DNA of 64,000 bases from Methanobacteriota archaeon (GTDB lineage Archaea > Thermoplasmatota > E2 > DHVEG-1), in contig CAVYNH010000007.1 in assembly GCA_963769885.1 (NCBI GenBank), positions 32,001 through 96,000 on the forward strand, given 5' to 3'. Every line of letters starts with the position of its first letter. The stretch's first letter is position 1. The position numbers and the translations under genes were made by a program. The notes under the pieces were generated by a model. That model ran no database searches, was not told the DNA's origin, and saw only the letters and a list, made by a program, of their open reading frames with translations. Shown here in pieces: positions 36,225 through 57,123 of this stretch.

Positions 36225-37160
36225 TTACATGACGAGGGTAATGTCAAGTTTCATTGCCAATTCTTTGTACCGATTCCGTATCGTGACCTCGGTCACCCCA
36301 GCGACGTCTGCGACCTCACGCTGGGTCCGGCGTTCTCCGCACAGTACCGAGGCGATGTACATCGAGGCTGCCGCAAGGCCGGTCGGCCCGCGTCCACTCG
36401 TCAATTCATGATTCGCGGCACGCTCAAGAATCTCCAGGGTCTTGGTTTGAACGCCGTTGCTGAGTTTGAGCACACTGCAGAACCGGGCGATGTAATCCTT
36501 TGGTATGGTCGGCATGAGCCTAAGTTCCAGCTCCCGGGAGACAAAGCGGTAGTTCCGACCGATTTCCTTGCGGGGCAACCGCGTGGCCAGGCTCACTTCA
36601 TCAAGCGTGCGGGGAACGTGGCATTGCCGGCATGCGGCATAGAGCGATGCGGCCGTGATCCCTTCGATGCTCCGGCCTCGGACAAGGTTCTTGAAGGCGG
36701 CTTTCCGGTAGATCATCGCCGCGGTTTCGCGAACGGACCGAGGAAGCCCCATCCCTGAAGAATAGCGGTCGATCTCGGTCAAGGCGAGGGCGAGATTCCT
36801 CTCTGTGGCATCGCTGATTCGGATCCGCCGCTGCCATTTTCGGAGACGATAGAGCTGGGCCCGGCTTCGTGCAGGGATGCGCCTCCCGTAGGCGTCTCGG
36901 TTGGTCCATCCGATGGTCGTGCTGAGTCCCTTGTCATGCATGGTGTAGGACATCGGGGCCCCGGTCCGAGAACGCTTCTCGCGTTGTTCGCTGTCAAACG
37001 CCCGCCATTCTGGGCCATGGTCGATGATGTCTGAATCAAGGACGAGCCCGCAATTCCCGCACACCAGTTCAGCCCGAGAGTAATCGCTTCTCAGATGTCC
37101 GCTCCCGCAATCAGGACAGCTGATGATCTCTTCTATTGCATGTTTGGTCTTTTTCTTCAA
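36225..37160 (-). CDS. tfb: Transcription initiation factor IIB
   Basis: CPDC..CGNCG ribbon, [32 protein letters not shown]; TTG start inferred. Confidence 0.96.
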
Positions 37161-37712
37161 GGCGTTTATCCTGATGCAGGTATCAATGGGCCATGCATGG
37201 TTCCCGGAGGTCTTGGATGCGTAGAAAAAAAACACAAGCATCTCACACGATTGCTATGAGAAAACCACGGTTTCTTCTCTGCCTATAAGTAATACCGGTT
37301 TCCTCCTTTATATGACTTTGTCTCTTTGGATGTGTATTGCACATGGTGTCTTGGACCCTTTCTGTAATAAAAGTCAAATACTTGGGTTGATGAAAAGCTG
37401 GGTTTGCGAGCGTCGGATGCATTGTTCACTGGCGAAGCGGCAGGATCTGGGCTGAAGGCGAGGAGAACAAGGAAACAACGTTTCACTTCCTTCTCTTTCG
37501 ACTTCAAATAAGGCAAAATGAAAAATAATTTGAGATATGAAATCAACTCCAAGTTTTTCCTTAACAACGCATCCTCAGAACCCCGTCGCCTTGCAGCGCA
37601 TACTGCATCCTGGATCCGTTTCTCTGAGCGGTTAGGCAGTGGCACTGTTTCATTTTTTACTAACAAATAAAGATGCTGACTTAACAATAACCGAGTGTGC
37701 ATCCATTCTTAT

Positions 37713-39998: not shown

Positions 39999-40546
39999 CA
40001 GATGTCTCTCTCAAATTACAAATTCAAAACATCTCTTTCTTTAAAAATCTACCCTTGTCCCTCTTCCAAGAAATGAATTGCCCGGCTTTCCCCCGGAGGA
40101 AGAAAACGCCTGAGGACGTATTACGATTCAGCTCCGGGCGATTCATCCCCAAACTAAGGCATGGGGATTTCTTGCTTAAGGGACGCTTAAAGAAAGAATG
40201 TAAGGGATGAGGGCTGGATGAGGAGAGGGTTTATGTCCTATTAATGGGATACACTCTTAAAAAGAGGACCCATCATCCCTAGTGTCTTCTTTTCGTTGTG
40301 GTCATTGTTAGCTTGAATTTTTTTTCAAGTCCCTATCAATTTCCGATGTCAGTAATGCATAACAGTATTTAAATGTATGTACAAAATGAGTAATCATGTG
40401 CAAATTGTAATTATTTTTATTTAAGAAATCATACTTTTACTTATACATGAACACTGCCTGTGCAGCATCATTGTTATATACTAGTTAAATACTATTGTGT
40501 AGGTATATTAAAAAATAAGTAACTAATACAAGGGAGGTTGACACCT

Positions 40547-40945: not shown

Positions 40946-41075
40946 TTACGCCCGCATCGAGATACTGTCACCGAGATAGCGCTATATTCATGGACTCTTC
41001 TTCTGTTGAGGATTTTTAGGTGCGAGTTTTCGAATCGTGTTTTGGTACTTGGAAACAGCCATGGAATCTGGCAAT
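40946..41075 (+). repeat. tRNA-Arg 3'-end copy fused to repeat family X (X also at 42111-42232 and 53690-53810)
   Basis: TTACGCCCGCATCG is identical to 56885-56898, followed by GATACTGTCACCGAGATAGCGCTAYATTCATG...TTCGAATCGTGTTTT...GAAACAG. Confidence 0.88.
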
Positions 41076-41330: not shown

Positions 41331-41477
41331 ATGATAAGAATGACGTTTTCAATTTCTAACAACCTGAAAAAAAAACTCGATTCCAAACCGGATGTCAATT
41401 GGCCTGAAGTCTTGAAGGAAAGACTCAAGAAGAGAGTAGAACTCTTGGAAAAACTGCATGAACAAGGAGAAATTTAA
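41331..41477 (+). CDS. Small RHH antitoxin-like protein (not in ORF track)
   Basis: MIRMTFSISNNLKKKLDSKPDVNWPEVLKERLKKRVELLEKLHEQGEI. Confidence 0.75.
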   Translation: MIRMTFSISNNLKKKLDSKPDVNWPEVLKERLKKRVELLEKLHEQGEI

Positions 41478-41478
41478 T

Positions 41479-41781
41479 ATGGCATGCATTACAATTTCTG
41501 TTGATAAAACATTTAAAAATAGACTCCATCAATTTTCCTGGATAAATTGGTCTGAAATTGCAAGAGAAGAACTGCTGAAACGATATCTCTTTGAAAAATA
41601 CATGAAAACAGGAGAACTATCCAAAGACGAGGAACGATTCTGCGACCAGATCGATTGGCACCCTGTCGATGAACTTCCGATAAAAAAAGAATTCATTAAA
41701 AAGATAGGGGAAATTCGAAAAGGAGCATCCTCAAAACCAATGAAACCGGATCAAGTCAAGCAGTGGCTTCAGGAGCTATGA
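41479..41781 (+). CDS. RHH antitoxin
   Basis: ITISVD...INWSEIARE; overlaps the toxin start. Confidence 0.75.
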   Translation: MACITISVDKTFKNRLHQFSWINWSEIAREELLKRYLFEKYMKTGELSKDEERFCDQIDWHPVDELPIKKEFIKKIGEIRKGASSKPMKPDQVKQWLQEL

Positions 41782-42053
41782 GCTTCGCCATCATTATCTC
41801 TAATGAGTTGAAGAAGACATTGGTGACGATGAAAAGGAAGGACCAAAGGATGTTTCAAATGGTGAGTAAGAAAATAGTGCAAATTGCGTCCTCGGATTCT
41901 CTTGCCATCCAACATTACAAGAATCTACGCAGCCCGTTGAACGACTATAAACGCGTTCATATAGGAAGCTATGTCCTTCTCTTCCGAGTCCAAGCAGAGC
42001 ACATCATCTTTGAAGCACTTGAACACCACGATCAAGTCTATCAAATGAAATAG
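41778..42053 (+). CDS. RelE/ParE-family toxin
   Basis: KNLR.PL..YKRVHIGSYVLLF.....IIF...EHHD.VY. Confidence 0.88.
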   Translation: MSFAIIISNELKKTLVTMKRKDQRMFQMVSKKIVQIASSDSLAIQHYKNLRSPLNDYKRVHIGSYVLLFRVQAEHIIFEALEHHDQVYQMK

Positions 42054-42083
42054 GGACTTTGCCCCTATGACGCCTTTGCCTTT
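42044..42083 (-). mobile_element. Solo IS200 right end
   Basis: Reverse complement of GGC...CATAGGGGC...CCCTATTTCATT. Confidence 0.8.
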
Positions 42084-42415
42084 ATTTCTTTTCTTTGCTG
42101 GTTTTGATTAGGATACTGTCACCGAGATAGCGCTACATTCATGTGATCTTCTTCTGTTGGGAATTTTATGGCATGGGTTTTCGAATCGTGTTTTTGTAGT
42201 TGGAAACAGTAATGGAATCTGCCAACGAAGACGAGTTTTAAGGAAACAGGATCCACCCATTTCATTAAATGTAATTCCTCTCTCTTAGGATTATGAATCA
42301 GGCTAATTAGTACTATATAGAGTTGACGGTACAATGTCGAAATTAATTTATAGATTGGTATCTATTGAGAGAGTAGATGTTCTCTCTAGAAAAAAGGTGG
42401 GAACACAATAGAAGC

Positions 42416-43424
42416 ATGAAGGCACCGCATACTTTTATTATGTACACACGTGTCCTGAGACTTCAAGGTGCTGCAGCAACTGCCTCCGCGGTTCTCATTG
42501 GTGCTTTACTCATGGGGCAACGAGACTTTGCCTCTCTGTTCGTTCTCTTTATTTTAGGGGTTCTCGCACATATTTTCATCTTTGTTTTCAATGAGTATGT
42601 TGATGTTCAGGTCGATGCAATATCTGCTGATCTTAAGGGGAAACCTCTTGTCAGTGGCGCGGTTTCACGACGTAATGCCCTTGTAATCGCGCTGATTGTT
42701 TTGGCATTAACGTACGTGCTCAGTACCCGTCTTTTTCTCAGAATACCCTTTGTTATTCCTTACATTAGGACTCCTCTGCGGTAGTATCTATGATTTATTT
42801 GGGAAAAAAATACTTTTTGCAGATGTTTTTATTGCAGGATCTTGTTTCTTCATTGTATTATTTGGTGCGAGTACTGTCTCTATCTCGTTTACATCCTTTG
42901 TGTATCTTGTTTCGCTTGCCTGTTTCTTCCACATTTTGTTTAACAATGCTGTTGAGGGTGGATTAAAAGATATAGATCACGATGCTCTTGCTGGTGCGAA
43001 AACAACAGCAACGCGATTACAGGTGAAGATTGTTGATGGGAAACTCGTGGTGACAAAACGGTTCGCTGCGTTCGCGTACCTCTGTAAGCTCTTTTATCTC
43101 AGTTTAGTTTTTTTGGTGAGTCTCCTCCCTGAGGTTTCCTTCTGGAATTCTACCGTATCTTTTTTAGCGCAGATATTTTTGGTCTTTCTACTCGCTGTAG
43201 TTGTTGTCACTTTGTATCGGTTTTGGCATCCCCCTGAATTTAACAGGAAGCATTTAATCAAGGTATTTGGGATACATGAGATCGCAGCATATGCCCTTGG
43301 CCCTATCGTTCTCCTTCCAGTGATAGGGATCTCTTTGACTCTGCTGCTTCTTGTTCTACCAGTAGTTTGGTTTTTCCTGGTGAACCTTTGCCTTTATGGA
43401 CATCCTCTGTATCCTCAGGTGTAA
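42416..43424 (+). CDS. UbiA-family prenyltransferase (apparent +1 frameshift at ~42727)
   Basis: NEYVDVQVD....KPLVSG, YD..GKK, KDIDHD..AGAKT; two frames joined at GTACCC. Confidence 0.82.
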
Positions 43425-43640: not shown

Positions 43641-43930
43641 TCATTCGTAAGGTTATTGACGGTCAGAAGTTGTCCCCGTTGGACTTTGGCGTAAACATTC
43701 AACCATGGTCCGATAATCATTCAAAATTGATTGATGGCTTGAGAATTTTACAGACATCACCTAGCAAAGGATACTACGTCCTAGATCCGTTTCCGTGGCT
43801 CGGTCAAGCAGTGACACGGTTTTGAATCATATTTTTTGTGTTGAAAAGTTCCATGGGTTCAAATCCCTTACCCTGCACTAAAAGACAAAATCAAGCTTAT
43901 TTTTAGTAAAGAAACCCATTTTATTTGCTC

Positions 43931-44717
43931 TCAATTTATTGAATGAGCCTTGGTTTTGATTTTTTCGAGTGCCAATCCATAAATCGAGATTGTGAATAAA
44001 GGTATATGAAGAATAGCCACCCAAACTGGATATCCTGAAATTATCAAGGGGCCACTCAGGTTTAGAAGACCGAAATAGACGCCTACAATGCAGAGAAAGC
44101 GGTATGCTGGTTTGTAGATATTAGGATAGGTACAAGGTCAAAATATAAATCATTACTGGTGCTGTAAAACAGAAGGCAAGTCCATATTCAGATGTCAAGA
44201 AGAGTATTGGATTAAAGTCTGGTTGTCCAAGTATCGTCATCGGAACCCAAAATGCTAAAATCGCCAAGGGCACTGCCCAAAACCTCCACTTTTCTAGCTC
44301 CACTAACGCAAATTCGTTCTCATGCTGGAAGATTGCTGGAATCCATAAGATGCCTACAAGGAGTATCTGTAACAGGTTATTGAATATAATCACAAACCCG
44401 AACTGTTGATTGACAGTTATGTTCTGTGCAAATGCTATAAACACAAAATTGACTGTAAGATACACATAAAAATATTTCACTACTTTCGTGTTGAGTTTCC
44501 AAAGAAGAATCACAAGGACTAGAGTGGCAAGATGAAAAGCGGGCGCAAGCCAAAGATATGGCGTAAGCGATTCTCTAAGGACTAGTCCCATAAGTTCTCC
44601 TACTTGCCCGTATGTCATTGGTTTGCTCGTATATGGTGGAACAAAAAGAGGGATCAGAAAAAGAAGTAAGTAGAACCACCATTTTGACGTAATCCTTCGT
44701 AGAGCAAACGGTAGCAT
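43931..44717 (-). CDS. Polytopic membrane protein (apparent +1 frameshift at ~44129)
   Basis: Hydrophobic reading continues in the shifted frame as YPNIYKPAYRFLCIVGVYFGLLN...HIPLFTISIYGL to TGA at 43931. Confidence 0.72.
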
Positions 44718-44934
44718 GTTGTTTTAGTATGACATATTTCGTATATAAAAGCATGAATTACTGAAATAGGTTCAAATCCTTCCCCTGCACATAAAAACAT
44801 ATCCTTAGAACCCGATCACCGAGCAGTAGATACTGCTTCCGAGATCCGTTTCCCTGGGCGGTCTAGCAGTGACACGATTCTATTGTGATCTACTACAATA
44901 TTTTGAATAAAAAATCAAGAGATTATTTTCTTAT

Positions 44935-50148: not shown

Positions 50149-51855
50149 TTATATCAATCTATTGCAAAGAGCAATAATAAATCGTAAGCCAATCAGTCCG
50201 TGATACTCCTTTGAGATCGTGACCCTCTCCCCATGAAGATAGGTGATGAAACTGAAGGGGATGAATGTCACTACTCTGGTTTTCACCGCCTCAAACGCCG
50301 TGTACTTTCCTTGACTGGAGAGGTTGGTGATCTTGCCGAAGATGAACACTGGCTGGAACTTTTCAACCGTAATGTTCTGAGTGATACTATCTTCTGCGCC
50401 AGCATTGTCTCTCACGGTCAACGTGACATTGTATGTCCCCGAAGCTAGATAGTCATGCGTCACGATTTCTCCTATTCCTGGAGTGCCATCGCCGAAATTC
50501 CAAACCCAAGAAGAGATATTCCCATCAGGATCATAGGAGGATGATGCATTAAAGGTTACAGAAAGATTTTCAGCAGAAAAGGTGAAATTTGCTATCGGCG
50601 GTTGATTTTCACTTTTTATTTTTATCAACTAGACATCCCTTTCTCCCAATCCATATGATTTTGTGTACCCTGCAATTAGATACCCTTTATCTATGGTCTG
50701 TATTACTGACCATCCTAAATCCTCATTTGGTCCTCCTAAGGTTTCATTCCATAGTTCATCACCCATAGCATCAGTTTTTATCAACCATACATCACTACTA
50801 CCTTTACCATAGGATTCCGTATATCCTGTGATAATATATCCACCATCCAGGGCCTGTCGAACAGAATATGCACCATCATTCAGAACCCCGCCAAAGGTTT
50901 TATTCCATAGCATATTCCCGTTTGCGTCTGTTTTGATTAGCCAAGCATCGTATGAACCTGCACCAAATGAGTTTGTATATCCTGCAATAATATATCCTCC
51001 ATCGGTTGTCTGCTGACCCGATAGTGCTAATTCATCGTTTATTCCTCCAAAGGTTTTACTCCACTGTAAACTCCCATTGCTATCAGTTTTAATAAGCCAC
51101 ATATCAAGGGGTCCAGCACCAAAACCGGTAAATCCAACAATAATGTACCCGCCATCAGCGGTCCGATGAACTGAACGTGCTTGTTCATTGTCTGCTGGTC
51201 CTCCAAAGGTTCTAAACCACTGCTCATTTCCATTAGCATCTGTTTTTAGAAGCAAAACATCAGCACCACCAGCACTGTTCCAATTGGTCCATCCTGCGAT
51301 AATATAACCACCATCTATGGTTTGTTCACCACACTCTGCTGTATCCCAAAGAACCCCCCTCCACCAAATCTTATCCCATTGTGTTATACCATTACCATCT
51401 GTTTTAATCAACAGAACACCAGCAGGACCTACAGGAGTCACAAAAGTGTTCCCTATAATGATATATCCTCCATCGGTTGTCTGCTGAACCGCCCATGCTT
51501 CATCCATGTTTGCCCATCCGAAGGTTTTATTCCACTGTTCAACCCCGTTAGAATCTATTTTTAGGAGAAAAACATCAAAATCACCAGCACCAAACGAGAG
51601 AGTTTTTCCTGTGGCGATATACCCTCCATCTGATGTCTGTTGTACGGAATATGCCGAATCATCGCTTACTCCACCCCAGATAATGTTCCATTCCGCTATG
51701 GGGCCATCTAAAGGCACTGCTGTTTGAGTAGTAAAAGAGCTGAAAACCCCTCTATTTTTCGCCCTAATATCACTAACACTTGATACGACACTCGCTCCCA
51801 CCATTAAAACGATAATTCCACAAACCACGCCCTTGTTCACCCAACTCGTTTGCAT
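50149..51855 (-). pseudogene. Secreted beta-propeller + PKD protein split by an in-frame TAG at 50629-50631
   Basis: Repeats QQTTDGGYII.G.T...DVWLIKTD..G...W; last repeat reads DV*LIK; then NQPPIANF, SYDPDG, WNFGDG (PKD). Confidence 0.8.
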
Positions 51856-52010
51856 GAAAACCGATTCCTCCTTGGCAGTTGTTATCCTATAGATTCATTT
51901 AAATGTTTTCAGACGATAAAATCTGCAACAAAGGGACGAACTCTTATATTACTATTTTAAAAACATATTCTTAGAAACCAATGTATTATGTTAATCGATA
52001 ACTGTACTGA

Positions 52011-52115
52011 AATGAAATAAGGGCTTTGCCCGTATATCTTGTTTCGCCCTCGTTCCTTACATCTACGAGTCTTACGCTGTCGCTTCAGATCGCGTAATAT
52101 TCCCCGCCACTATTG
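52011..52115 (-). mobile_element. Miniature IS200 derivative (LE fused to RE)
   Basis: Minus strand reads CAATAGTGGCGGGGAATATTACGCGATCTGAAG...AAGACTCGTAGATG + AGGAACGAGGGCGAAAC...GGGCAAAGCCCTTATTTCATT. Confidence 0.8.
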
Positions 52116-52235
52116 ATATAAAATAACTGGATGAAAAAAGTTTGAGTTTGAAAAGTTATTGGGATAATAATTTAAATTATGATGATATTAGAAAAATCAT
52201 CAAAGTATCCTTACAAAATTTAAAAGAGGAATAAA

Positions 52236-53615
52236 ATGAATTCAACGGAAGAACAAGACCTTGTTAAGGTATTAGGACAACTGATTTCAAAGATAAAAAA
52301 GGAGATATTCGATGTTCGTTCCAAGGGGATGATAAAGCCAGAAGAAGAATTATACTATCGTTGGAAGATAGATAAATTTCAGTATACGAAGAATGGTGTG
52401 ACGGAATCCTCCGCTCATGCAGAACCTATCATGAAAAAATCTTGGTGGAGGGCTGCTCTAATGATTGAGGAATCTATCAAAAAATCTCATGAATATTTTC
52501 TTGCTGTAGAGGTTTTAAGTAAAATTTTTCATGGAAGAAATACAATAACTCATGACCTCGATTGTTTATTAAGAAAGGTAATCTCATTGTATTTAGAAGA
52601 AACAGCATTTAATGAAACGTATTTTGATGTTCTAATTTCAAATTTTTTAAAAGAGATTAAAGAGGAACCATTAAGATATATGGCAGAAGTCGAACTCAAC
52701 GGAATAGTACTTATTCCAGAGAAGATTGAATATAAAATTGGAGATACAGATGTCGCCCTACGTCAAACTAAAATTGAAGATCTTGAAAAGGAATTTCCTG
52801 CCAATAGGATAGCTGGCCAACCTTTCTTAAGAACGCCTTCGGCAATTCTTAATTTGGAGTTTCTTGGACAAGGAGACAATGAATTACAAATAAAAATCTT
52901 GCAGACAATTGCAGTGCTTCGACTCTTCAAAGTTGGAAGCGTGAAAACCCTCTCATACTGTATGCATTCAGACTCCATCACAAATCTTATGGCCTCTACG
53001 ATTCATACTGCCGTAGATTCAGAAAGAGCTTTAGAAATAAGCCAAATCATAAATGAAGATGAACAAAAATTGAAAAGATTTTGGCAGATAATGATTAAAG
53101 CTCTGCCATCTAATTTTTACACGTTTGAAGATATAAAGATAGATTATATCACCATTGCGTACAAACGTTATTGCGATGCGTTATTGCAAAATGGTTCTAT
53201 AGAACGAAGGATCGCCAATGCAGTGATGGGTCTAGAGAGTCTTTTTCTGAAAGGTGGGGAAATCCAGGAGTTACTTTACCGCCTGAGTATAAGGGTCTCC
53301 AAAATATTCAATTATTTAGAATATGATTATTGCAAAGTAAAAGAGGTAGTAGAAGAAGCCTACAAGGTGAGGAATCTTTTTGTTCACGGCAGCTATTTGT
53401 CGTACAATGAAAAAAAGAAATTGAATAGCAAATTTGGCGATGCTAGAAAGTTGTTACTGTCACTGCTCGACTATTTACGGATATCTATACTGGTCATGAT
53501 ATTAGTCAAAATGGAGAAGGAAGAATTTCTCGATTTAATCGATGATAGCTTAGTTGACAAAGGGAAAGACAATCAATTAAATAATATCCTCAATACCGCT
53601 AGAAATGTTATCTAA
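52236..53615 (+). CDS. HEPN domain protein (ApeA/MAE_28990-like)
   Basis: GLESLF...EL.YRL..R...YKVRNLFVHG (RxxxxH). Confidence 0.82.
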   Translation: MNSTEEQDLVKVLGQLISKIKKEIFDVRSKGMIKPEEELYYRWKIDKFQYTKNGVTESSAHAEPIMKKSWWRAALMIEESIKKSHEYFLAVEVLSKIFHGRNTITHDLDCLLRKVISLYLEETAFNETYFDVLISNFLKEIKEEPLRYMAEVELNGIVLIPEKIEYKIGDTDVALRQTKIEDLEKEFPANRIAGQPFLRTPSAILNLEFLGQGDNELQIKILQTIAVLRLFKVGSVKTLSYCMHSDSITNLMASTIHTAVDSERALEISQIINEDEQKLKRFWQIMIKALPSNFYTFEDIKIDYITIAYKRYCDALLQNGSIERRIANAVMGLESLFLKGGEIQELLYRLSIRVSKIFNYLEYDYCKVKEVVEEAYKVRNLFVHGSYLSYNEKKKLNSKFGDARKLLLSLLDYLRISILVMILVKMEKEEFLDLIDDSLVDKGKDNQLNNILNTARNVI

Positions 53616-53620
53616 GTAAC

Positions 53621-53662
53621 AATGAAATAGGGGCTTTGCCCCTATCACCCCATTCCGCCTTT
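53621..53662 (-). mobile_element. Solo IS200 right end
   Basis: Minus strand AAGGCGGAATGGGGTGATAGGGGCAAAGCCCCTATTTCATT. Confidence 0.88.
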
Positions 53663-53915
53663 ATACCTTTCCTCTGCTGGTCCTTCTCGGGATACTGTCA
53701 CCGAGATAGCGCTACATTCATGGACTCTTCTTCTGTTGTGGATTTTTAGGTGTGGATTTTCGAATCGTGTTTTTGTACTATGAAACAGCCAATGAATCTG
53801 TCAACGAAGATTTGATAACAGAAAAGGCCTAGTTCATAATTCTACCAGGAGAGAACACGTAGCATAAAAATGGGAATTATGAATCAAGCCCAGACAAAAA
53901 GAAAGAAAAAGAGAT

Positions 53916-53972
53916 TTACTTCTTTTTCTTTGTTGTTTTCTTCTTCGTTGCTTTTTTTGTTTTTGTAGCCAT
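53916..53972 (-). CDS. Lysine-rich micropeptide MATKTKKATKKKTTKKKK (not in ORF track)
   Basis: GAGGAG RBS, TATTTAAT box upstream, T-rich tract downstream; alternative ATG at 53984. Confidence 0.55.
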   Translation of the reverse strand: MATKTKKATKKKTTKKKK

Positions 53973-54087
53973 GATTTTTTTCATCTCCTCTTCTAAACTT
54001 ATGAATGGAGAGATTGATTAAATACTTTGTTCAATTATTTGTTAAAATTTCTATGAAAATAGCCAACAAAAAGGATATGGGGCAATA

Positions 54088-54468
54088 TTATCTATTTTTG
54101 ATGATATTTTTAAGTGCCGATATATCATTTTTAATGCTTTTAACTTCTTTTAATTTTTCCTGTTCGAAGGCTTTTAATATTTCAGATAAATCCGTGGTGG
54201 TTTTATAGATATGAACTGGTCTGCCTTTCCCCTCCTTTTTAAGATCCCGCTTTTTTACCCATCCTCTTCTGCGTAGTTCCTGCATCGCTATGCTCACCTC
54301 AGGTTGACGCATATCTGTCCCCTGTTCAACATCAGCAAATTTATATTCATCAAATCGTGAAGCGTATAATAACGTTTTAGCAAGATTTTTCGGCATCCCT
54401 AACCTAACGAATAATTGAATAGCTTTACCATCATCGGTGTCTAACATATACACATTTTTTTGTTTCAT
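54088..54468 (-). CDS. Winged-helix transcriptional regulator (COG4738-like)
   Basis: LGMPKNLAKTL...MRQPEVSIAM..L...GWV....K.GKGRP...Y; GAGGTG RBS. Confidence 0.85.
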   Translation of the reverse strand: MKQKNVYMLDTDDGKAIQLFVRLGMPKNLAKTLLYASRFDEYKFADVEQGTDMRQPEVSIAMQELRRRGWVKKRDLKKEGKGRPVHIYKTTTDLSEILKAFEQEKLKEVKSIKNDISALKNIIKNR

Positions 54469-54684
54469 ATTTTCCACCTCCTCATATTTCATACCATATA
54501 ACATTTAATCACTTATAAGACCAGCCATCAATTGAAAACAAGGAACCATTCATATACAAAGATGCGAAAAAACAGATTCCACAGCCAGCATACTATGAGA
54601 GTATCATTTTAATAGAAATACTTGTTCTTTGTTTTGCCACCTAGAAACTGTGACACTTCACTATTTAACGGAAAGTGATACTAT

Positions 54685-55236
54685 ATGATAGAAATAAAAG
54701 TACAAAATATTGTAGCATCTACATCTTTTGCAGATAAGTTAGATCTTGATGTGATAGCACAATCATTGAAAGAAGCTGAATATGAGCCAGAGCAGTTTCC
54801 TGGGCTCGTGTATCGGTTGAGTAGTCCGAAAACCGCTACCCTTCTATTTAGAAGTGGGAAGGCGAACTGTACTGGTGCAAAGAATATTGAAGACGTCAAA
54901 ACCACTATTAATATCATTGCGGAAAAACTGAAGATGCTGGGTGTTGAGGTCTATAAAGACTTTGGGATCGTCATTCAGAATATTGTAGCCACAGCTGATC
55001 TTGGGGGAGATCTTAATCTTAGCGAAGTAGCTATATCTCTTGGTTTAGAAAATGTGGAATATGAACCTGAGCAGTTCCCCGGACTGGTCTATAGGATAAA
55101 AGAACCTAGGGTAGCTATGCTTTTGTTCGGTTCTGGCAAAATAGTCTGTGCAGGTGCAAGAAAGATGGAAGATGTGTCATTAGCAGTTGATAAATTATCA
55201 AAAGAGCTCACGTCATTGGGGCTTCTCCATAAGTAA
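54685..55236 (+). CDS. tbp: TATA-box-binding protein
   Basis: Two repeats NIVA...YEPEQFPGLVYR...LLF.SGK..C.GA. Confidence 0.97.
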   Translation: MIEIKVQNIVASTSFADKLDLDVIAQSLKEAEYEPEQFPGLVYRLSSPKTATLLFRSGKANCTGAKNIEDVKTTINIIAEKLKMLGVEVYKDFGIVIQNIVATADLGGDLNLSEVAISLGLENVEYEPEQFPGLVYRIKEPRVAMLLFGSGKIVCAGARKMEDVSLAVDKLSKELTSLGLLHK

Positions 55237-55382
55237 AACCTCTCTCGTAATATATGGGGCAACGAAAAAAACCAATCTGTTAACGTGAGAGACGTTCTTT
55301 TCCATAAGAAAATCCTCAAAACTCCTACGAACGAGTATTTATATTACTCAACTGATAAGTTAGAGAATATCAGGGATTTGTT

Positions 55383-56319
55383 TTGGTTAAAAAAGAAAAA
55401 CAGAAAATAGAAGAAATCGTTCAATGCCCTGAATGTGGGAGTACCCATCTCAGTAAAGATTACTCTCGGGCGGAATTAGTTTGTAGAAATTGCGGACTTA
55501 TTCTTGATGAGGATATCATTGACCATGGCCCAGAATGGCGTGCATTTGATAGCGAACAGCGGGAAAAACGAGCTCGAACTGGAGCACCAATGACGTACAC
55601 CATTCATGATAAAGGACTCAGTACCGATGATAGGATGGAAAAACAGAGATTCCTATGGGAAGTCAATTCCAACGAGAAATAGAGCACAAATCTATCGTTT
55701 GAGAAAATGGGCACGGCGCATTCGGATTAGCAATTCAACAGAGAGAAACCTTGCTATTGCATTTTCTGAGCTTGACAGAATGGCATCAGGCATGGGCCTC
55801 CCAAGAACGGTAAGAGAGACCGCTGCTATGATTTATAGAAAAGCAGCATTGAAAAAATTGGTCCGTGGTAGAAGCATAGAAGGTGTTACCACCGCAGCAT
55901 TGTATGCAGCATGCCGGCAGTGCCATGTGCCACGTACACTTGATGAAATAAGTAACATAGCACATATATCCAGGAAAGAGATCGGAAGGACCTACAGATA
56001 TGTCTCTCGTGAATTAGGATTAAAATTGTTGCCGACGTCACCAGAGGATTATATTTCAAGGTTCTGCAGTGAACTGAAATGTAGTGGCGATGTACGAGCG
56101 AAGACCTTGGAGATCTTACAAGAAGCTGCACACCGAGAACTTACTAGTGGACGTGGCCCAACTGGTATGGCAGCAGCCTCTCTTTATATTGCATCGGTAC
56201 TTTGTGGTGAACGGAGAACACAACACGAGGTAGCAGAAGTCGCAGGCGTCACCGAGGTTACTATTCGAAATCGCTACAAGGAACTCACAAATAAACTAGA
56301 TATAGGCATTGCCCTGTAA
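55383..56319 (+). CDS. tfb: Transcription initiation factor IIB (apparent +1 frameshift at ~55625)
   Basis: CPEC ribbon and GPEWRAFD in one frame, cyclin repeats in the next; junction AGT ACC G ATG. Confidence 0.9.
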
Positions 56320-56338
56320 GTTTCATCGTTTGCCCTAT

Positions 56339-56668
56339 TTATTCTTCTTTTTTAGTTGTTAAAATTATTTCTATTGAAGACACATTGGAGATTCTGCCTT
56401 CTTCATTGGTAACACTTTCAGTACCGATTTTTATTTCTTTAATTTTTGCGTCTTTGATAAATCTGTTTCTCACGATTTCTGCAGCATCTACCGCTGTACT
56501 AATCGCCCTGCCTCTCGCTTTAATAATAACCTCATCCGAACCACTAGTGTTAAATTGTGTTACTATTGCAAGCACATAGCTCATCGGAGGTTTGTGTCCA
56601 ACATAGATTACGTTTTCATCTGGTCTTCTTTTTTCAGCTGTTCCCGCTTCTGTTGTTTCTTCTACCAT
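56339..56668 (-). CDS. albA: Chromatin protein Alba
   Basis: [39 protein letters not shown]. Confidence 0.96.
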
Positions 56669-56817
56669 AATTTTTTCCCGCTCAAACCTACAATTTAATA
56701 ACATCTCATTCTTTAATAACATACCCTGAGAAACCCATCACATAGCAGGGAATACTGCGTCCTAGGCCCGTTTCCGCGGCTCCGTTTTCAACAAAAAAGG
56801 ATTAATCATGATTCTAC

Positions 56818-56864
56818 ATGTCTACACCACAGTTCGAACCACGCAGTATTCCTAGCCGCTATTG
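56818..56864 (-). mobile_element. Solo IS200 left end
   Basis: Minus strand TTAT|CAATAGCGGCTAGGAATACTGCGTGGTTCGAACTGTGGTGTAGAC versus LE TTAT|CAGTAGCGGCCGGGAATACTGCGTGGTCTGAACCGCAGTGAAGAC. Confidence 0.85.
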
Positions 56865-56887
56865 ATAAAAATGTCACACTAGATTTA

Positions 56888-56961
56888 CGCCCGCATCGGG
56901 ATTCGAACCCGAGTCTTAGGCTCCGCAGGCCCATAGGATGTCCAAGCTACCCCATGCGGGC
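56888..56961 (-). tRNA. tRNA-Arg(GCG), no encoded CCA
   Basis: Acceptor GCCCGCA/TGCGGGC, anticodon arm TGGGC-CTGCGGA-GCCTA, T arm TCGGG-TTCGAAT-CCCGA. Confidence 0.96.
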
Positions 56962-57123
56962 AAGACGCACCCTTCGCAGCCGATTTTAGCGTCAAGTCAG
57001 GGACCTTTCTTGACAAATCGGTGACGGAGAGTTTTCTGTGCAGTAATCATATATCATATTATAAGCCTTGGGAGGTCTCTCGCAGACTTCGTTCTGCTCG
57101 GCACGAACGCTTCGAACAACCCC

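Follow-up and report, generated by a model that had tools for sequence, protein, structure and literature searches.

Evidence that an accessory TBP-TFB-Alba cassette beside tRNA-Arg(GCG) moved recently between Thermoplasmatota species

A compact cluster of basal transcription factor genes, lying next to tRNA-Arg(GCG) in a Thermoplasmatota metagenome-assembled genome (MAG), is a recently transferred accessory cassette and not an insertion sequence (IS) composite of the IS200 type. We analysed a window of 64,000 nucleotides, which is positions 32001-96000 of contig C7 of this assembly (G000, a 2.09-Mb MAG of seven contigs); coordinates without a prefix are window positions. Relatives include the Thermoplasmatota MAGs SG8-52-3 and SM1-50, which we take to be DHVEG-1/MBG-D (Thermoprofundales). 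Basal transcription factors are usually taken to be inherited vertically, yet here a block of TBP, TFB, Alba and a regulator has crossed species recently and recurs at many sites in a sediment lineage that is itself widespread. Its closest known counterpart is the set of tbp and tfb genes on plasmids of Halobacterium (PMC1447603, PMC4230888). In the reading that we favour, and consider probable, the cassette is an accessory unit that moves horizontally, entering through a recombinase supplied in trans at the 3' end of tRNA-Arg(GCG) or through shuffling between repeats; the IS ends around it are bystanders, and it gives an extra or conditional supply of standard TBP and TFB.

The conserved block (the module) spans about 53873-56738 (2.9 kb) and holds five genes, each with a separate TATA-like box:

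53916-53972, minus strand: Lys-rich micropeptide of 18 amino acids (aa), with a ribosome-binding site, at the left edge (~53873-53892) of the conserved block
54088-54504, minus strand: MreA-family (TrmB-like) regulator, likely start 54468, above the cut-off of NF053756
54685-55236, plus strand: accessory TBP, 85% identical to the housekeeping TBP at C6:158391
55383-56319, plus strand: accessory TFB, 311 aa after discounting one extra C, 82% identical to the housekeeping TFB at C6:332817
56339-56668, minus strand: accessory Alba, one of five copies in the assembly

A preliminary description of this DNA had named Alba, TFB, TBP, a regulator and a Lys-rich peptide, and all are present, the regulator being of the MreA family; it had overlooked, however, a frameshift in tfb. 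The window has this gene as two open reading frames (ORFs), split by a single extra C at ~55624. In G001, the genome of a sister species whose core is ~73-80% identical to G000 at the nucleotide level, tfb is intact; the extra C is missing from contigs of all four sequencing runs compared, among them a short-read contig (X1 record 8) that is otherwise identical to the window. Judging from these contigs, the extra base is most likely an assembly error, and we ruled out tfb as a pseudogene given its absence in G001 and in the contigs of the four runs. The 18-aa peptide is identical in G001 and locus L118, with variants in L119, L124, L127, L151 and L152. The regulator scores 114 bits against NF053756 (cut-off 100) and is 65% identical to a core copy at C6:565542; a PDB search found no relative. 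Like MreA (MA3302) of Methanosarcina acetivorans (PMC3419521), it passes the NCBIfam MreA cut-off and is TrmB-like without the sensor domain, but unlike MA3302 it comes from a non-methanogen host, has several paralogues in each genome and is often linked to TBP, TFB or Alba.

The elements bordering these genes are as follows:

53622-53679, minus strand: IS200 right-end (RE) remnant, terminal hairpin and TCAT end only, outside the transferred block
53680-53812, plus strand: degenerate tRNA-Arg 3'-end (att-like) scar followed by arm repeat D7; G001 has a clearer scar at the same junction
56698-56738, minus strand: D11, the TATA-like alba promoter within a 28-bp dyad, common to many island genes, at the right edge of the conserved block
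56738-56808, plus strand: D12 repeat (~65-70 bp), with an outer stem like that of the IS left end, absent at the matching position of G001
56813-56864, minus strand, TTAT flank at 56865-56868: IS200 left-end (LE) remnant, AATA guide retained, hairpin decayed
56887-56962, minus strand: tRNA-Arg(GCG), anchor of a variable island

G001 carries the block 53680-56738, with 97% identity across 53873-56738. There the block occupies the far end of the corresponding tRNA-Arg island, between two D7 arms and without IS ends; the module's IS200 family is present elsewhere in G001, but not at the module. Synonymous divergence (dS) of the module genes is 0.04-0.08, as against 0.67 for housekeeping tbp and 1.36 for cgi121, the two core genes compared. 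The ratio of nonsynonymous to synonymous divergence (dN/dS) is ~0.2 for module TBP and TFB, and these extra copies are intact and under purifying selection, alongside separate housekeeping copies. Homology with G001 and with L118/L119 ends at 53680-53892 on the left and 56732-56738 on the right, and metagenomic copies have limits of ~53892 to 56732-56738. In runs X3 and X4 the module has deep coverage and RE and D7 are near background, depths that pool other organisms and are indicative only; one contig from the data of these runs has the promoter of another cassette joined directly to 53897. These comparisons indicate that the block has moved recently between species. It is also conceivable that the genes are an old second operon, kept vertically, relocated by ordinary recombination and lost piecemeal, as the gene order kept in distant genera and the lack of a nearby integrase would suit. 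However, the dS values are ~8 to 35 times below those of the two compared core genes, codon usage is foreign, the positions differ in sister species with many addresses across the family, and accessory TBPs fall in more than one clade, which leaves this history quite improbable. Viral carriage was considered and rejected: a module-specific 20-mer had 0 matches in viral contigs, and seven matches to D7 17-mers were without similarity to D7 or the module.

Paralogue counts and trees, which the preliminary description had proposed, place the module genes as accessory paralogues of housekeeping copies. Housekeeping-type TBP, TFB and regulator genes are found elsewhere in G000, plus four other Alba copies. 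More than one TBP is present in most family genomes, and the housekeeping tbp stands in a conserved translin-divergent TBP-TBP locus. The divergent TBP of this locus (30-49% identity) precedes the housekeeping TBP in a tandem arrangement in G000 (C6:157836-158942), in L033-L053 and in most family genomes checked. Module TBP forms a clade with accessory TBPs of seven other genera (support 99/96), and the tree shows more than one origin of accessory TBPs. Approximately unbiased (AU) tests reject the grouping of module TBP with its own housekeeping TBP (p=0.002) and of module TFB with its own housekeeping TFB (p=0.0003, with the long branch C5 left out), and local duplication is therefore rejected for both. 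Two further TFB paralogues occur, at window 36225-37241 and at G000 C5:28681-29628, the latter very divergent (58%) with a nearly unchanged recognition helix. In these MAGs, additional copies of tbp, tfb and alba should not be mistaken for contamination, and they make poor phylogenetic markers.

The module had also been expected at other loci, and in 64 of 160 MreA loci one or more of TBP, TFB and Alba do lie within 2.6 kb, the combination varying from locus to locus; recurrent neighbours of module loci are zinc-finger (13 loci), cold-shock (6) and Lrp/AsnC (4) genes. The cassette thus recurs with variable content at many chromosomal addresses across DHVEG-1 Thermoplasmatota. The opposite case, in which these would be the sole tbp and alba genes, vertically inherited and syntenic with tRNA-Arg, does not agree with what is found downstream of cgi121-tRNA-Arg(GCG) in 11 relatives for which 8 kb or more of sequence is available; none of them has a TBP or Alba there, and one has MreA and TFB. 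Halobacterium NRC-1 has multiple TBP and TFB paralogues, several on pNRC100/pNRC200 (PMC1447603; expansions in PMC4230888). As in that organism, accessory DNA here carries extra general transcription factors in addition to a conserved housekeeping copy, and a role in promoter choice or stress has been proposed; unlike there, they form a compact, 2.9-kb chromosomal TBP-TFB-Alba-MreA-peptide cassette, in Thermoplasmatota, with evidence of recent interspecies transfer. A limited literature search found no account of a compact linked TBP-TFB-Alba cassette in this group, accessory TBP and TFB genes being known from haloarchaea.

With regard to the IS200 ends, the preliminary description was right that a minus-strand LE with its TTAT lies about 20 bp from tRNA-Arg (we place it ~19 bp from the 3' end of the tRNA), and that a minus-strand RE lies at the far side of the module. 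The two remnants are co-oriented, with TTAT 5' of LE at 56865-56868 and the TCAT end at 53622. The mobilisation as an IS200 composite that it drew from them is unsupported, because the RE has neither the subterminal hairpin nor its guide, the transferred block ends inside the IS ends, and the G001 copy has no such ends. Two further elements serve as comparison:

52010-52122, minus strand: 110-bp LE+RE mini-element (palindrome-associated transposable element, PATE) of the same IS200 family
42043-42242: second RE+D7 fusion, with other cargo; closest co-oriented LE 10 kb off

About nine full tnpA-only IS200 copies occur in the genome, each preceded by TTAT and terminating in TCAT, alongside four or more LE+RE mini-elements of 110 bp. 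As in IS200/IS605 elements and PATEs (PMC3201880, PMC3119063), the ends derive from a tnpA-only IS200 with a TTAT target and a TCAT end, and the 110-bp mini-elements are core-deleted; unlike in those systems, the module's remnants have no working right end and lie outside the transferred block. In IS608, guides lie at the 5' foot of the subterminal hairpins, and guide and cleavage sequences are both required (PMC3201880). Under this rule AATA (left hairpin) and GATA (right subterminal hairpin) match the cleavage sites, the hairpin used by TnpA here being deduced from the IS608 rule and the mini-elements also being without the right subterminal hairpin. All five transposase-bearing ends examined have that hairpin and the GATA guide, which are missing in the module RE, and the left hairpin of the module LE folds at -0.4 as against -5.3 kcal/mol. 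Identity to active copies is 78% for LE and 85% for the terminal RE.

If the unit were an IS200-derived cargo transposon, TnpA of intact copies would excise the 3.24 kb between TTAT and TCAT. The orientation is right for this, the TTAT flank, AATA guide and TCAT end are retained, and seven copies with TnpA 97-100% identical could provide the enzyme in trans. Nevertheless, the right subterminal hairpin and GATA guide are missing and the left hairpin is decayed, and IS608 requires both (PMC3201880); identity to active copies is 78-85% for the ends, whereas the cargo is 97% like the end-free G001 copy; and an RE+D7 fusion also occurs at 42043 with different cargo. Among the 64 linked loci, LE was found in one, RE in two and both in none, so that no locus is enclosed; these loci are non-independent, many are short contigs, and the IS-end models detect the module's IS family only. 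We thus regard a cargo transposon as highly unlikely. A co-oriented LE-RE pair seems unsurprising since 12 IS ends, including four solo ones, lie in the stretch of 32.5-57 kb. In our reading the module's LE and RE are what is left of decayed mini-elements; they flank it by chance and are not its vehicle.

A related possibility, compatible with the favoured reading and accounting for the geometry only, is that LE and RE are the halves of one 110-bp mini-IS behind the tRNA, split by insertion of the cassette. The halves sum to about one mini-element, and a mini-element at C4:89067-90502 is likewise split, in that case by an IS110-like element: it is interrupted by a 325-aa transposase gene, labelled IS110-like by eye, which gives an LE-cargo-RE look with a CA duplication. 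Haloquadratum PATEs, which include remnants and nested insertions, are frequent insertion targets (PMC3119063). On the other side, the halves overlap by several bases, D12 sits between LE and the cassette, and the module RE and the RE at 42043 have derived changes in common, both being fused to D7 (86% identity in RE, 91% in D7). Owing to these shared changes and the shared D7, the RE+D7 fusion seems older than the transfer. We find a split mini-element rather doubtful. A second IS200 family with mini-elements of its own was observed at window 40052-40180, G000 C1:45121-45750 and C6:39348-39964, and in G001 a member of that family stands directly behind tRNA-Arg.

How the cassette moves is suggested by the tRNA. 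According to the favoured reading, it would enter a tandem island at the 3' end of tRNA-Arg(GCG), by site-specific integration with a tyrosine recombinase encoded elsewhere; shuffling via island repeats may be an alternative route of entry or a later rearrangement. The module lies 3' of the tRNA, and its far boundary bears a second copy of the tRNA 3' end that is clear in G001, where the left junction is a tRNA-Arg 3'-end copy fused to D7, and degenerate in G000. Further tRNA-Arg 3'-end scars, clearer than the one at 53680, lie in the G000 island near 40950, 43525 and 49958, and at least eight other tRNAs of G000 have 3'-end copies outside tRNAs, with the crossover immediately past the T-loop. 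D7 is island-specific, with three copies in the G000 island and two in that of G001, and was found in none of 59 other genomes searched outside the genus. Across module loci that contain a tRNA, the module is 3' of it in 10 of 12, with seven kinds of tRNA. A tyrosine integrase lies directly 3' of tRNA-Arg(GCG) in G006 (L287:1765-2748) and is a candidate for the class of enzyme behind the tRNA scars; elsewhere in G000 there are eight PF00589 matches.

Several results weigh against this account. No integrase was found in the island, nor in ~220 related loci searched with six G000 integrases as queries. The enrichment of tRNA adjacency is not significant (7/30 vs 7/58, p=0.22), a strict 3'-scar test was positive in one of the 12 tRNA-containing loci, and the att-like core of G000 is degenerate, matching that of G001 at 11 of 14 positions. 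Neither an empty-site joint nor an excision circle was found in the contigs of the four runs.

Comparable cases are the CIME-like elements, which are integrative elements targeted to tRNAs, with integrase-less passengers that accrete in tandem. The cassette resembles them in its repeated tRNA 3'-end scars with conserved arms, in cargo located 3' of the tRNA and in an order that differs between sister species; it differs in that most other module loci yielded no scar and an integrase was not found in cis. Within the tRNA-Arg island we also observed, at 43856-44792, two direct tRNA-Leu 3'-end copies that bracket an ORF (44121-44717), a cassette that possibly moved in from a tRNA-Leu array.

The function of the cassette must be considered against general archaeal transcription. 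TBP and TFB recruit the archaeal RNA polymerase via the TATA box and the B recognition element (BRE) (PMC5569661), and the C-terminal helix-turn-helix of TFB (CLR/HTH2) reads the BRE as sigma region 4 binds -35 (PMC4581349). The BRE-recognition helix is the same in module and housekeeping TFB and nearly identical in 1D3U, and the Phe and Asn motifs of TBP are the same in both copies; residue-level BRE contacts were assigned with the help of PMC4581349 and the 1D3U alignment. The changed DNA-recognition residues expected of a sigma-like factor are thus not seen in module TBP or TFB. Since neither the TFB recognition helix nor the core motifs of TBP depart from the housekeeping copies, supply is the likelier role, ahead of sigma-like reprogramming. 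From its gene content, the cassette would provide an extra or conditional supply of TBP and TFB of standard specificity together with nucleic-acid-binding proteins, possibly in cold or stress, with MreA as a local regulator. The MreA of Methanosarcina is a promoter-binding activator and repressor (PMC3419521). A leader common to the module and the cold-shock genes of the window was looked for and not found.

The preliminary description had likened the module to a mobile alternative sigma factor. Such an alternative initiation system, in which TBP-TFB and MreA would redirect RNA polymerase to distinct promoters, for example the D11 dyad, is in line with the frequent travelling together of TBP and TFB, with the resemblance of the TFB-BRE contact to that of sigma region 4 with -35 (PMC4581349), and with the varying stress fitness of haloarchaeal TFB paralogues (PMC4230888). 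D11 is present in six of 30 module loci as against one of 58 others (p=0.006), a difference confounded by a model partly trained on the alba promoter. On the contrary, the recognition helix and TBP motifs are unchanged relative to the housekeeping copies, TBP and TFB occur together in just 7 of the 64 MreA-linked loci (on short contigs), and a crude genome-wide scan gave no distinct BRE class. We hold this system to be unlikely, and equally so the more specific proposal that TBP-TFB, MreA, Alba and the Lys-rich peptide jointly activate a D11 dyad promoter class of island genes. If it were true, gaining 2.9 kb of DNA would rewire archaeal transcription like a mobile alternative sigma factor. 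Reprogramming through MreA is possible, together with the D11 dyad lying across the TATA box of alba and of further island genes. The module and housekeeping copies (82-85% identical, same recognition helix) are a natural near-matched pair for weighing promoter choice against supply in archaeal paralogues.

D11 sites lie at window 38939, 48455, 49667, 51948 and 56698, and also in L118, L132, L139 and L195; the dyad may act as an operator or as a site of recombination. D12 occurs at window 37586, 38978, 39395, 43757, 44815, 46450, 49704 and 56738, invariably on the plus strand and often within the right arm of D11 with CAT-like triplets on either side, with its outer stem in common with the IS200 LE; no cognate transposase was found for it.

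The AT-rich island measures ~18 kb and extends leftwards from the 3' end of tRNA-Arg(GCG), the module being its tRNA-proximal end. The low GC content reported earlier for the 3.2 kb between the IS ends holds relative to the core (39.0% in the module vs 58.1%), but is not confined to that unit, the neighbouring 14.6 kb having 40.6% and the adjacent 459-aa gene 34.7%. GC at third codon positions (GC3) is 0.25-0.35 in the module genes, about the lowest 5% of genes. The tRNA was the only match in an Rfam scan. The 459-aa protein (52236-53615) ends 6 bp from the IS200 RE remnant and has no Pfam or NCBIfam match. Further along the island are a ParE/RelE-type toxin-antitoxin pair (41458-42053), a prenyltransferase-like gene in two overlapping ORFs (42377-43424), and a repeat surface protein whose stop is followed immediately by a PKD-like ORF (50149-51855), the last two with putative breaks that may be genuine or assembly errors. 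Elsewhere, G000 C1:5700-15500 contains two identical alba genes in a long inverted duplication, which may be an artefact of assembly.

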